IMG/VR virus record: IMGVR_UViG_2576861478_000002 | DNA length: 64,000 nucleotides | Origin: a virus | Lineage: Duplodnaviria > Heunggongvirae > Uroviricota > Caudoviricetes | Strand: one strand, 5' to 3' | Shown here: piece after piece, positions 1,808-26,539 of the stretch | Position numbering within the stretch: the first letter of the stretch is position 1 | Layout of the letters: the number at the start of each line of letters is the position of its first letter | The notes under the pieces: model-generated | What the model saw: the letters and a program-made list of their open reading frames with translations, nothing else | Databases searched by the model: none | What the model was told of the DNA's origin: nothing | Program-made: the position numbers and the translations under genes

Positions 1808-4237
1808 TTGTTATCTACAGCAGCGAATTATACAGAAGCAATTAACAACATAATGCCTGGAGCGAAAATTATTAAGCTTACTGGATATGCAAAGGGCAAT
1901 CAAGAGTATCAAAAAGCAAAAACACCAGTAGGTTCTTGGAAAGTCACGCATTCATTAGATAACGATCAAATTAATGGATGGCTTGGTCAAGGTGGCTGGA
2001 TAGGGTGTGTTGTTCCAAAAGGTATTTTCATTGTCGACATTGACGATTCTAAAGAAGGTCAGTTACTAAGAGAATTACTTGAAGGAGAAAACATTCATCA
2101 CCATTTAATTAAAACTCCTAATGGCTGGCAGTTTATATTCAAAGGCGAAACGGATTTAACGAAAAAAGAAGGTCAGTATCAGAATTACGTTAATCGTTTA
2201 GGGTTAACACAAGATACACGAGCAGTGGAAAAGGGTTATATCGTATTCCCGACCGAAAATACAGAAGGGCGTCATGTTGTAACTCAAAGTCTAGAAAAAT
2301 TGGACGAGCTTCCACAGTTCTTATATAAAGCATGGAATGGTGCGAAAACACCTTCACCTATGAGTTATCCATATGAAACTAACGGTTCACGTGATGGGGA
2401 TTTTTATGATTTAGCCAGAAGGTTATTAATTTGTAAGGTGAGCAAAAAGGAAGTATTGTCCAGTCTTAAATTGGCTCACAAATACTTTGTTTCCTTCAAA
2501 AAAGGGTTTCTTATTAAGGATATTACAAAGGTTGTTAATTCGGCCTATAAGAAGGTCAATGAAGGAAAAGCGGATGAGGGAATAACAAACGATAATGAGA
2601 AAAAACAAGAGGATTCTATCATTCCTGTAAATATTCCATCTCCTTACAAAGTTAAAAATAATGCTTTATATAGAGTGGAAACTAAGGTCAAGAATGGAGA
2701 ACTTGATGAACGGGAAATCATGGTTGCTAGGCATGTTCCGATTCTAAAAAGAGAACTACATAACGTTGAACGTCAACAATTATATTATGAGTTAACCTGG
2801 AATGATAGAGGGAAGGTCGTCACCGAGATTGTTCCAGCTGGAGCATTGGTCACTAAGAGGGAGATGATGCCATTAGCAGATAAAGGGTTTCCTTCAAATG
2901 ATAATAACATAAAGCAGTTAATAGATTACTTTGATAAGGTTTTAGCGTTTACCGAGATTGATAGAGGGCTGATGGTAGACCGTTTAGGTTATGTGAAAAG
3001 TGGTTTGGCCCATCCATTACTAGCAACAGATTATGAAATACTGCCTAATGATCAAGGAGAGCAGCAACTTTTTGAATCATTCCAAGTAGCTGGGACAGTC
3101 CAAGGGTGGATAGATGAAGTATTTAATCGTATTAAAGCCCATCCGAGAGCATTATTTTTTGTATTAGCATCCTTTGCTAGTGTACTGCTTCATGATTTAA
3201 AAATAGATCCTTTCATTGTGGATCTTTCTAGCGGAACTTCAAAAGGAAAAACAAGCGTATTAAAAGTTGCAGCCAGCGTGTGGGGGACAAGTGAACTTGT
3301 AAATGAATTTAACGCAACCAAAGTTAGTATTGAACGTAAAGCATCCTTCTTAAACAGTTTTCCTTTGTTAATGGATGATAGCCGTAAAGCGGATGAAAGA
3401 TTACTTCAATCCATTGTTTATAACTTCAGTGGAGGGAAGTCTAAAGGTAGGGGTTCTCTTAGTGGTTCGCAAAGAGAAAATACATGGAAAAATATCATGT
3501 TAACTACTGGAGAAGTAAGTCTAAATGAATATGCATCTAAAGCTGGGGGAGCTGCTGCTCGAATTGTGAGTTTAAATGATAGCCCATTTGAAGGAGTAGA
3601 TTATATATTCTTCGCTGATTTATATAAGGGGCTAGAAACAAATTATGGAGTAATTGGTTTAGAGTTTTTAAAACAGTACCAAGTACGTAAGAAGGAGTTG
3701 CTCCCATCTTTTTATAAATTTAAAGATTTTTATATGAATAAAGCACAGGGAAATGAGGTTTTAACAAGATTATCCCTTTATTATGCAACAGTCCATTATG
3801 CAGGTAGACTCCTAAAAGAATTTTTCAAGGTTAGTGTAGATCTTGAGCAACTGGACAAGCTTTTTGACGAAATTGCCCAAGAAAATAAAGCAATAGATAA
3901 ACCAAAAGAACTATTGAATGAAATTTTAACTTACTTGGATAGTAATAGGGATGGTATTTATTATGACTATGCTCCCAAAAATATCAAAGCAATTTATAAG
4001 TTTAGTTCAATTTGTTTAACACCATCTTTTTTAAAAGAGTTCTTAGGACCAGAAGAAAAAAGGACTAGAAAAGAGTGGTTGAAAAGGGGATTTACTGTTC
4101 CTAATGTTTTAGATGGGAAAGCAGTTGATTATCAAAAAATTAGCCATAAAGGGCGAAAAATCAATGCTGTAACTATAAATAAAGAGATTGTCCAACAATT
4201 AGGTTTTGATTTTGAAGAAAATCCACCTAATAACTAA
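1808..4237 (+). CDS. bifunctional primase-polymerase (prim-pol) N-domain + DUF927/D5-like NTPase replication protein
   Basis: Prim-pol catalytic block (GWIGCVVPKGIFIVDIDD). C-terminal P-loop-like SSGTSKGKTS plus a Walker-B-like LLMDDS. Start is probably the TTG at 1808 after GGGAGGTG (the ORF track gives 1775). Confidence 0.75.
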   Translation: MLSTAANYTEAINNIMPGAKIIKLTGYAKGNQEYQKAKTPVGSWKVTHSLDNDQINGWLGQGGWIGCVVPKGIFIVDIDDSKEGQLLRELLEGENIHHHLIKTPNGWQFIFKGETDLTKKEGQYQNYVNRLGLTQDTRAVEKGYIVFPTENTEGRHVVTQSLEKLDELPQFLYKAWNGAKTPSPMSYPYETNGSRDGDFYDLARRLLICKVSKKEVLSSLKLAHKYFVSFKKGFLIKDITKVVNSAYKKVNEGKADEGITNDNEKKQEDSIIPVNIPSPYKVKNNALYRVETKVKNGELDEREIMVARHVPILKRELHNVERQQLYYELTWNDRGKVVTEIVPAGALVTKREMMPLADKGFPSNDNNIKQLIDYFDKVLAFTEIDRGLMVDRLGYVKSGLAHPLLATDYEILPNDQGEQQLFESFQVAGTVQGWIDEVFNRIKAHPRALFFVLASFASVLLHDLKIDPFIVDLSSGTSKGKTSVLKVAASVWGTSELVNEFNATKVSIERKASFLNSFPLLMDDSRKADERLLQSIVYNFSGGKSKGRGSLSGSQRENTWKNIMLTTGEVSLNEYASKAGGAAARIVSLNDSPFEGVDYIFFADLYKGLETNYGVIGLEFLKQYQVRKKELLPSFYKFKDFYMNKAQGNEVLTRLSLYYATVHYAGRLLKEFFKVSVDLEQLDKLFDEIAQENKAIDKPKELLNEILTYLDSNRDGIYYDYAPKNIKAIYKFSSICLTPSFLKEFLGPEEKRTRKEWLKRGFTVPNVLDGKAVDYQKISHKGRKINAVTINKEIVQQLGFDFEENPPNN

Positions 4238-25350: not shown

Positions 25351-25421
25351 TAAGGAGAGCTTTTGCTCTTCTTTGAGCTGATACGTGCCTATCTATAGTG
25401 TCGGTTCAAAGAAGAATAAAA
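25351..25421 (+). other. conserved hairpin/mini-ORF element, copy A (also at 60119..60236)
   Basis: Identical 29-mer TAAGGAGAGCTTTTGCTCTTCTTTGAGCT and 12-mer AGAAGAATAAAA in both prophages. The arms are complementary around a variable loop. The RBS-like GGAGAG is followed by a TTG mini-ORF MLFFEL... Confidence 0.3.
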
Positions 25422-25454
25422 AAATGAATATGAGTAACAAATAGCTTATATAAA

Positions 25455-25490
25455 AAAAGAGGACGCTTATATGGCGTCCTTTATGGTGTA
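25455..25490 (-). terminator. terminator for hicAB (bidirectional hairpin AGGACGC..GCGTCCT)
   Basis: Perfect 7 bp stem flanked by A and T runs. Confidence 0.5.
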
Positions 25491-25906
25491 TTCTTTTTTT
25501 CTTTATATCCTAAATGCTTTTCTAATGCTTCTACAAGCATTTCAGAGAAATTGACATTTTGATTTGCTGCATGTTCTTCCAACCAAGAAGGAAGAGTAAC
25601 ATTTTTTCTTTTGTAAACTGTACTATCTTTTTTTCTAAGTGGTGGCATCCAAACATCGATTAAAATAGAGTATTCATTTGACTCTAATTTTGGTTTTAAC
25701 CATTTTATTGACATTGGCTCTGGAAGTGTATCATTATCTTTCTCCATTTCAGATAAATGGAGTCCTAATGCTTCTCTAGCTTCTTTTAAAGCATCTTCTT
25801 GTGTATCGGCAAAAGATGTACAACCAGGGAGATCAGGAAAGTAAATACCAAAGCCATCAGAAGATTGTTCTAAGACAGCTGGATAAATATAATAGTCTTT
25901 TTTCAT
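25481..25906 (-). CDS. hicB: HicB-family antitoxin (RNase-H-like fold + C-terminal RHH)
   Basis: YPAVLEQSSDGFGIYFPDLPGCTSFADTQEDALKEAREAL signature. Sits downstream of hicA. Confidence 0.85.
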   Translation of the reverse strand: MKKDYYIYPAVLEQSSDGFGIYFPDLPGCTSFADTQEDALKEAREALGLHLSEMEKDNDTLPEPMSIKWLKPKLESNEYSILIDVWMPPLRKKDSTVYKRKNVTLPSWLEEHAANQNVNFSEMLVEALEKHLGYKEKKNTP

Positions 25907-25957
25907 AATTTGTTTTTATAACGATTTCTTGTATAATTAGGGAAAGCAAGGGGCGGT

Positions 25958-26140
25958 TTATAACCAACCCGCTTGCTTATAGATTGAGCGAAGTGTACCT
26001 TTTGGAATATCCTTGCACGGATGTTTCACGGTTACTTTGCCAATCTTAGAAGGATGTTTGAACTGATGGTGGCTGCCTTCAATGTTCACTATAAACCATC
26101 CTTCTTTTTTTAACCTCTTAATTACTTCCCTACTTGAAAT
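25958..26140 (-). CDS. hicA: HicA-family mRNA interferase toxin (no canonical start; apparent ATT start)
   Basis: Minus-strand translation gives (I)SSREVIKRLKKEGWFIVNIEGSHHQFKHPSKIGKVTVKHPCKDIPKGTLRSIYKQAGWL. AAGGAGG RBS is 8 nt before the ATT. Not in the ORF track. Confidence 0.65.
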   Translation of the reverse strand: MSSREVIKRLKKEGWFIVNIEGSHHQFKHPSKIGKVTVKHPCKDIPKGTLRSIYKQAGWL

Positions 26141-26177
26141 CGTTATTACCTCCTTTCAACTTTCTATACTTATTATA

Positions 26178-26195
26178 ACACGCATTACAATGCGT
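26178..26195. promoter_or_regulatory. palindromic operator ACGCATT-AC-AATGCGT upstream of hicAB
   Basis: Perfect 7 bp inverted repeat in the hicA promoter region. Confidence 0.35.
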
Positions 26196-26258
26196 ATCAA
26201 TAGATAAAGGTGAATTTCTCTGTTTTTTATATGTTTTTTTATGAATATATCAGTATAT

Positions 26259-26285
26259 TGAGCACCCGATTTGGGTGCTTTTTAT
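26259..26285 (+). terminator. rho-independent terminator before the late operon
   Basis: GCACCCGATTTGGGTGC followed by TTTTT. Confidence 0.5.
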
Positions 26286-26317
26286 TATGTAAAAATTACA
26301 TAGGTGGTGTTTAGCAA

Positions 26318-26539
26318 ATGACACGACATTATTTAATCGGTACATTAGTTAATTGGCGTGAAAGTGTAGAAAGGTTTCACTACAACGAATCATTACAATG
26401 TTTAAAAAATGAGTTTCAATTAAGTTGTGAAGAGGCAAAAGAAATGTATGAAGATACAATAAAAGCATTTTGGTTATCTTTCTATAAGTGGTACGAATAC
26501 AGACACCCGAAGTTACGAGAGTTATTAGGAGAATGGTAA
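26318..26539 (+). CDS. hypothetical protein
   Basis: First ORF of the late operon; RBS present. Confidence 0.4.
   Translation: MTRHYLIGTLVNWRESVERFHYNESLQCLKNEFQLSCEEAKEMYEDTIKAFWLSFYKWYEYRHPKLRELLGEW

Follow-up and report, generated by a model that had tools for sequence, protein, structure and literature searches.

The 64,000-nucleotide viral sequence analyzed here (the window; IMG/VR record IMGVR_UViG_2576861478_000002) carries on its minus strand a hicAB toxin-antitoxin pair whose toxin gene appears to start at AUU. The explanation that best fits our observations, and one that we hold to be moderately probable as a whole, is that hicAB is a functional type II toxin-antitoxin cassette, a self-contained moron of a temperate siphophage of the Bacillus cereus group, that it is transcribed from a promoter of the sigma-A type, and that HicA is held low at the level of translation by an AUU start codon and a predicted fold-back helix in the mRNA. 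Because the toxin gene comes first in the operon, toxin output must stay below that of the antitoxin. The pair itself is not new, as the family is known and NCBI annotates the gene as a HicA family toxin.

Identity and conservation of the hicAB pair

The hicA coding sequence (25958..26140, minus strand) comprises 60 codons and a TAA stop (25960-25958), exactly the span given in the original prediction. Its product matches Pfam HicA_toxin (PF07927, COG1724; E = 1.6e-22), with profile positions 1 to 58 of 58 aligned to residues 3 to 59 as numbered from the ATT, and PHROG 353, annotated "toxin" (5.2e-22). It also aligns over its whole length to HicA structures in the PDB (4c26 at 1.5e-16 and 6g26 at 2.8e-16). 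His24, part of a Gly-Ser-His-His motif, is invariant across 14 alleles and aligns opposite the alanine of the H24A variant chain in 4c26; from the literature, we take His24 of Burkholderia pseudomallei HicA to be the catalytic residue. The adjacent hicB (25481..25906, minus strand) encodes 141 aa with an N-terminal HicB-like domain and a C-terminal ribbon-helix-helix (RHH). It matches Pfam HicB_lk_antitox (PF15919; 8.9e-18) and PHROG 497, and its residues 29 to 134 align to the HicB chain 9svk_B in the PDB at 3e-14, including a C-terminal RHH-like segment. These matches bear out the earlier identification of the locus as hicAB.

The hicA reading frame is intact in all 14 alleles, one of which stops one codon early. 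At least 12 of the 28 changes among them are synonymous, against an expectation of 20% (P = 0.0056), and the most diverged pairs have a dN/dS of 0.25 to 0.33, pointing to purifying selection. The exact HicA protein of the window is present on several hundred contigs in public databases, and the clade is carried by prophages of B. cereus, B. thuringiensis, B. toyonensis, and B. paranthracis.

Genomic setting of the cassette

The window comes from a siphophage or prophage of the B. cereus group, with 97% identity to Bacillus phage B13 in the packaging and head genes. By PHROG and Pfam assignment, the neighbors of hicBA on one side are a RecU-type resolvase and two transcription regulators (phrog_3910 and phrog_36), and those on the packaging side are terminase genes, an HNH endonuclease, and an unknown gene, in agreement with the location first proposed, between a regulator and the packaging operon. 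The strand of hicBA is opposite to that of the flanking genes. Among B. cereus-group relatives the genes flanking hicAB differ from strain to strain, and in the B. subtilis phage phi105 hicAB occupies the same slot, between a transcriptional activator and HNH/terminase genes; together these observations make the proposed moron slot a reasonable reading. B13 itself lacks this hicAB clade. A megablast comparison of the hicAB region with sequenced phages returned only a 38-bp match, the clade being absent from that phage collection.

The slot beside hicA appears to be a hotspot for accessory or counter-defense genes. In one relative (L001), a 55-aa gene directly upstream of hicA (2666-2833, minus strand) has a weak Pfam match to Acb2_Tad1_hairpin, an anti-CBASS/anti-Thoeris sponge family, and the equivalent place in the window holds a different, 73-aa gene (26318-26539, phrog_27184).

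The arrangement is that of an operon: hicA lies directly 5' of hicB on the same strand with a 51-nt spacer, there is a single promoter and a single terminator, and the gene order is kept in all relatives. The terminator is a predicted intrinsic one located after hicB (AGGACGCCATATAAGCGTCCT plus a T-run; 25452..25480, minus strand). We also noted a strong intrinsic terminator on the plus strand (GAGCACCCGATTTGGGTGCTT plus a T-run; 26260-26290); it separates the hicA promoter from the first gene on the packaging side (26318) and would stop rightward antisense transcription through hicBA. With the hicB terminator, it would leave the cassette transcriptionally insulated on both sides.

The hicAB promoter (26172..26200, minus strand) consists of a -35 element TTGATA (26200-26195), a 17-nt spacer, and a TG-extended -10 element TATAAT (26177-26172). 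It matches the consensus at 11 of 12 positions and is the sole strong minus-strand match in the region, and its layout is kept in relatives and in phi105, consistent with a sigma-A-type promoter. Its spacer contains a putative HicB operator, the inverted repeat ACGCATT-gt-AATGCGT (26180..26195, minus strand). This repeat had been described as a perfect palindrome in the promoter; the position stands and the arms are 7 bp long, but the 2-nt center is not palindromic. Across 23 haplotypes the sequence reads [A/G]CGCAT-N4-ATGCGT, and it is the combination of conserved arms with a freely varying 4-nt center that makes it operator-like. At the same place in its promoter, phi105 has ACGTATTATAATACGT. 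HicB proteins of the RHH type bind such inverted repeats (PMC11594946), and HicB probably autorepresses this promoter via the ACGCAT-N4-ATGCGT repeat.

In some B. cereus-group genomes and an IMG/VR prophage (L089, positions 1-1500; L094; L096), an IS110-family element encoding a 397-aa DEDD transposase sits directly upstream of the hicA Shine-Dalgarno (SD) sequence. The insertion replaces promoter and operator, leaving ...catacGAGGAGGtaataacgATT, and may silence hicAB or re-drive it. A 76-aa "HicA" called by NCBI (P0127) reads out of this element.

A conserved ATT at the proposed start of hicA

The hicA frame opens only after an in-frame TGA (26158-26156) and reads AAG GAG GTA ATA ACG ATT TCA AGT AGG GAA, on to the TAA. 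Between this TGA and the conserved HicA domain we found no ATG, GTG, or TTG, as had been noted before. The first canonical start is a GTG at 26089, and the mechanical list of open reading frames therefore gives just a 43-aa fragment. The claim that the toxin gene had been missed thus holds for that list, which admits ATG, GTG, and TTG only, and does not extend to NCBI, which annotates the protein. The proposed initiation codon, ATT (26138..26140, minus strand), lies 8 nt after GGAGG and aligns with the Met of homologues; the Pfam alignment, complete from residue 3 onward, puts it at the usual Met position. Upstream is an extended SD sequence, GAAAGGAGGT (26148..26157, minus strand), about 9 nt from the predicted mRNA 5' end and conserved in all close loci. 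Ten consecutive nucleotides of it (GAAAGGAGGU) pair with the 3' end of 16S rRNA at -17.0 kcal/mol, which makes the ribosome binding site 8 nt before the ATT stronger than originally described. It is unpaired in the predicted fold of the transcript.

We defined as close loci those with at least 85% aa identity; the 33 that qualified come from isolate genomes, IMG/VR prophages, and the more distant Bacillus sp. BP-3 (85% aa identity). All 33, representing 23 haplotypes, have ATT in the pattern [A/G]AGGAGG-TA[A/G]TAACG-ATT, and the ATT, the SD sequence, and the 8-nt spacer show little or no variation. No ATG-start variant was found among them. In 93 of 96 distinct distant homologues, an ATG, GTG, or TTG occurs at this position or immediately upstream of it, and the other three have no canonical start. 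The nearest database proteins are 62, 54, and 72 aa long, and every one contains "TISSREVI."

Initiation of hicA at AUU is the best-supported reading of these sequences, given the conservation of the ATT, the failure of rival codons (see below), the purifying selection on the gene, the exceptional SD sequence, and precedent in Firmicutes. Conserved AUU and AUA starts with extended SD sequences yield about 10% of AUG output in Staphylococcus aureus and are shared with B. subtilis (PMC13009471), and B. subtilis infC initiates at AUU (PMC1865079). The original prediction had left the choice between rare AUU initiation and a start-codon mutation; conserved AUU initiation is supported, and a recent mutation is excluded. 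Our literature search found no report of a noncanonical start for hicA or any type II toxin, nor did it turn up an AUU-start hicA or, for any type II toxin-antitoxin mRNA, a long-range helix. A review of HicAB contains no mention of start codons or SD sequences (PMC11594946), and a 2025 paper on the B. thuringiensis phages B450T and B450C describes hicAB and does not comment on the start.

A second Firmicute-like HicA lineage without a canonical start, one of the exceptions among the distant homologues, was observed on two IMG/VR metagenome viral contigs (L130/L131, around 1390-1700; 62% HicA identity). These read TATAAT-...-AAAGGAG-ttgaaac-ATT-ATA-TCC, in which an in-frame TGA precedes the ATT (TGA-AAC-ATT-ATA), with the same promoter/SD layout, an ACGTAT-N5-ATACGT operator, and a hicB that has its own SD sequence. 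This suggests that AUU/AUA toxin starts arose more than once in Firmicute phage hicAB. In addition, two metagenome-assembled genomes (MAGs) from Nitrospinota and Methylococcaceae (L025 and L079; start region at about 1490-1503) have ATA at this place: in L079 it stands at the aligned start with no upstream in-frame canonical start, and in L025 it stands where the close relative L029 has ATG. Additional noncanonical hicA starts or MAG errors could explain these two cases.

A predicted long-range helix and an SD-less hicB

Two features go beyond what had been predicted for this locus: a long-range helix that would sequester the hicA start and the absence of an SD sequence from hicB. Folding of the predicted transcript, beginning at about 26166 and ending shortly after the hicB AUG, gave an energy of -73.8 kcal/mol, versus -49.4 ± 4.6 kcal/mol for shuffled sequences (z = -5.3), and the helix was present in both the minimum free energy and centroid structures. 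Its 5' arm (26126..26146, minus strand) comprises AUAACGAUUUC (26146-26136), which covers the spacer, the AUU, and 2 nt more, followed by GU and AGGGAA (26131-26126). Its 3' arm (25918..25944, minus strand) comprises UUCCCU (25944-25939) and GAAAUCGUUAU (25928-25918); it lies in the hicA-hicB spacer and ends 11 nt before the hicB AUG. AUAACGAUUUC is perfectly complementary to GAAAUCGUUAU over 11 nt, and GU/AC and AGGGAA/UUCCCU add eight further pairs, an extension through which the helix would enclose the whole hicA ORF.

Opening the region from -18 to +12 around the hicA start is predicted to cost about 15 kcal/mol in the full-length mRNA and about 4.5 kcal/mol in nascent RNA of 60 to 200 nt; for hicB in the full-length mRNA the figure is 8.0 to 11.4 kcal/mol. 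For the start codon alone, the predicted cost is 7.6 kcal/mol for hicA and 0.4 to 1.7 kcal/mol for hicB.

The hicB AUG has no SD sequence upstream, its anti-SD duplex reaching just -2.3 kcal/mol. In other Firmicute lineages the hicB SD sequence pairs at -10 to -14 kcal/mol, and hicB is SD-less solely in this clade. Since those lineages retain an SD sequence for hicB, three derived traits co-occur in the clade, namely, a putative AUU start, a helix predicted to mask it, and a hicB without an SD sequence. No internal promoter for hicB alone, comparable to E. coli P2, was flagged on the minus strand, and neither a -35 element nor a TG motif accompanies a TATAAA that ends 8 nt upstream of the hicB ATG. 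HicB might be made from an unstructured A-rich leader, through coupling to the opening of the helix, by sharing of the SD sequence across the helix base, or from a hicB-only transcript.

In BP-3 (L004/L006, 3270-3600), hicB is called at 108 aa, with residues 4 to 12 out of register and a truncated C terminus that lacks the RHH. Every frameshift lies in an A-run; the -10 element is TATGAT, and the operator is degenerate. This copy represents either a homopolymer assembly error or a decaying locus.

In our estimate, the helix is about as likely to be functional as not. The alternative deserves serious weight, although we think it somewhat improbable: the long-range complementarity would have arisen by chance or as a by-product, AUU and the SD sequence alone would set the toxin level, and hicB would be translated from the A-rich leader or from another transcript, internal or leaderless; the TATAAA before hicB could in principle provide a near-leaderless 5' end. 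The statistics of the pairing can be read both ways. A perfect complement of at least 11 nt between these regions arose in 17 of 20,000 shuffles (p ≈ 8.5e-4) and in about 0.15% of genomic windows, so about one shuffle in a thousand reaches the same length. Against chance stand the perfection of the 11- to 12-bp complement together with its eight additional pairs, and a pair probability of about 1.0 in all 17 transcript haplotypes. The core is 12 bp long in most relatives, 11 bp in the window, and 10 bp in BP-3.

Comparative evidence is similarly divided. Comparable start-to-intergenic pairing is absent from 94 distinct distant hicAB loci, including L130/L131 and phi105, where the longest complement is 4 to 9 nt and thus never reaches 10. 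This argues against a chance or by-product match, as does the co-occurrence of the helix with two other clade-specific traits, but it also leaves the helix without independent phylogenetic support. Moreover, the L130/L131 lineage combines an ATT/ATA start with no such helix, which we count against our preferred explanation. The outermost pair moves through A-U (15 haplotypes), G-U (one), and G-C (one), which speaks against a chance match. However, the whole fold contains just two compensatory pairs, both from BP-3, the copy with hicB frameshifts; 3 of 500 shuffles reach that number, and we estimate that about 0.5 would be expected by chance at the divergence of BP-3. Most helix pairs never vary, and covariation thus backs the helix weakly. 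Conservation of both arms also has other causes: the 5' arm would be constrained in any case by its role in translation initiation and coding, and the 3' arm falls within a block beside the hicB start that is conserved beyond the limits of the helix. An Rfam scan of 25400-26350 gave just subthreshold chance matches.

Proposed mechanism of toxin limitation

Our preferred reading, in which toxin synthesis is limited by the AUU start and the helix, can be set out as follows. The operon would be transcribed from its own sigma-A promoter and repressed by HicB bound to the inverted repeat. The conserved AUU would be recognized solely thanks to the unusually long SD sequence at the optimal 8-nt spacing, and this combination would yield roughly a tenth of AUG output, as it does in Firmicutes. 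Once the mRNA has grown to at least about 230 nt, the spacer and AUU would pair with the sequence just upstream of hicB, and an interrupted stem of about 20 bp would close round the hicA ORF, masking the toxin start and leaving the hicB AUG single-stranded. The 5'-proximal SD sequence would stay exposed and may shield the mRNA 5' end from RNase J1 in the fashion of a STAB-SD. From conserved sequence and predicted structure we infer AUU initiation, formation and function of the helix in vivo, binding of HicB to the repeat, and the mode of translation of the SD-less hicB.

It is also conceivable, though we consider it unlikely, that the hicAB mRNA switches translation by changing conformation, a type of control that has not been described for type II toxin-antitoxin systems. 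The nascent mRNA, with SD sequence and AUU exposed, would then give a brief, weak pulse of HicA until transcription of the 3' arm allows the helix to lock the AUU. The exposed 5' SD sequence would thereafter serve the SD-less hicB through STAB-SD-like stabilization of the mRNA. Alternatively, the helix base would bring the SD sequence within about 13 nt of the hicB AUG as a split ribosome binding site, for which T4 gene 38 provides a precedent. As IF3 polices the use of AUU, toxin synthesis from such a switch would rise when the initiation fidelity of the host drops; more toxin would be made during, for example, translational stress or phage attack.

Other readings of the hicA start

It is improbable, in our judgment, that hicA is an untranslated, start-less relic whose RNA acts as a structured, ribosome-protected leader of hicB, with HicB as an orphan regulator or antitoxin. 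Such a reading would account for the lack of a canonical start codon, for a start region predicted to be locked in a stable helix, and for the disagreement of annotation pipelines over the start, and it would sit well with the damaged hicB of BP-3 and with the genomes in which an IS110-family element replaces the promoter. Nevertheless, the intact ORF, the excess of synonymous change, and the low dN/dS described above are those of a translated gene, and constraint on RNA structure alone would lower synonymous change rather than favor it. The catalytic His and the Gly-Ser-His-His motif have been kept, and the 10-nt SD sequence is held at optimal spacing from an invariant near-cognate codon.

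We regard translation from another codon as less probable still, and indeed very unlikely, although public annotation of identical DNA contains four different calls. NCBI most commonly starts the protein at the ATT at 26140 (60 aa; 307 contigs), and otherwise at a downstream ATT (54 aa; 84 contigs), at the ATA (62 aa; 66 contigs), or at the GTG at 26089 (43 aa; 16 contigs, e.g., B. thuringiensis kurstaki HD73 and YBT-1520). In two genomes with identical DNA, the call is the ATA in one and the downstream ATT in the other. At ten loci with the 60-aa call, we confirmed that the DNA reads ATT and not ATG. The rival candidates are thus the ATA, the ACG, the downstream ATT, and the GTG; two of them, the ATA and the ACG, are near-cognate and lie in the open frame. 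However, just 2 nt separate the ATA from GGAGG, and several haplotypes, BP-3 among them, have GTA instead. The ACG is 5 nt from GGAGG, and ACG is a very poor initiator in bacteria. The downstream ATT has no SD sequence and would cost the protein six conserved residues. The GTG, at codon 18, also lacks an SD sequence and is replaced in other alleles by GCG, ACG, or GAG; starting there would delete the N-terminal helix that the Pfam profile includes. A 72-aa call from an upstream ATG in Bacillus sp. BP-3 was rejected as well: this ATG lies inside the -10 hexamer (TATGAT), and an in-frame TGA precedes in all other haplotypes.

A sequencing error or a start-codon mutation private to the window genome, both raised with the original prediction, can be set aside, as an identical ATT is present at 33/33 close loci (23 haplotypes) from independent isolate assemblies and IMG/VR prophages.

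That identical DNA carries four public N termini (60, 62, 54, and 43 aa) has a practical consequence. ORF callers limited to ATG, GTG, and TTG miss or truncate the toxin, and surveys of toxin-antitoxin and defense systems in this group will undercount or mis-size hicA.

Comparison with known systems

The pair resembles canonical HicAB systems (E. coli, B. pseudomallei, Yersinia pestis HicA3B3, Streptococcus pneumoniae, and phi105 gp49/gp48) in its toxin-first order, its HicA of about 60 aa with a catalytic His, its HicB with an N-terminal HicB-like domain and a C-terminal RHH, and the inverted repeat in its promoter. The likeness to phi105 gp49/gp48 extends to the genomic slot and to the promoter-operator-SD layout. 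It differs from all of these in that their hicA starts with ATG or GTG, whereas the window has a putative AUU start, a predicted start-masking helix, and an SD-less hicB. In phi105 (L005, 1440-1503), the hicA ATG lies 13 nt after AAAGGAGA and hicB starts with TTG, which may represent a different tuning of the toxin/antitoxin translation ratio within the same cassette architecture; hicA is unannotated in the older phi105 records (NC_004167 and AB016282).

With genes known to start at AUU or AUA, such as E. coli infC and pcnB, B. subtilis infC, and S. aureus cvfC1 and ccpN, hicA shares a conserved near-cognate codon, an extended SD sequence, and proper spacing. Output from such starts is about 10% of that from AUG, and they are expected to be IF3 sensitive (PMC13009471, PMC1865079). 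None of these genes is a type II toxin, and the start in the window, if AUU is indeed used, is also predicted to be base-paired. The STAB-SD of B. thuringiensis cry3A, from the same host group, is a GAAAGGAGG-type sequence near the mRNA 5' end that binds the 30S subunit and blocks RNase J1 (PMC4113751); the hicA SD sequence has the same core, about 9 nt from the predicted 5' end. With a plausible start codon 8 nt on, the hicA SD sequence probably does direct translation, which a STAB-SD by definition does not, and a stabilizing role for it is speculative.

Among type I systems, hok mRNA reportedly contains an fbi element that mediates fold-back inhibition. The predicted hicAB fold resembles this and the SD-sequestered toxins of B. 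subtilis prophages, txpA and bsrG, in that a toxin start would be occluded by pairing with a distant downstream sequence and would be open only transiently, limiting toxin synthesis. Type I systems differ in their antisense RNA antitoxins and 3' processing, whereas the window holds a protein-antitoxin operon with the 3' arm between the cistrons and no known antisense RNA or processing. Some toxins are known to use noncanonical starts or unusually strong SD sequences, the examples being type I (PMC10643148).

In E. coli hicAB, a second promoter produces a hicB-only mRNA, and this is the sole mechanism of toxin limitation understood for toxin-first operons (PMC11594946). No second promoter is evident in the window. 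With its fixed AUU, strong SD sequence, predicted start-masking helix, and SD-less antitoxin gene, the clade would instead offer a purely translational alternative to the two promoters of E. coli, a toxin-limiting design that, in a known toxin-antitoxin family, appears to be previously undescribed for hicAB.
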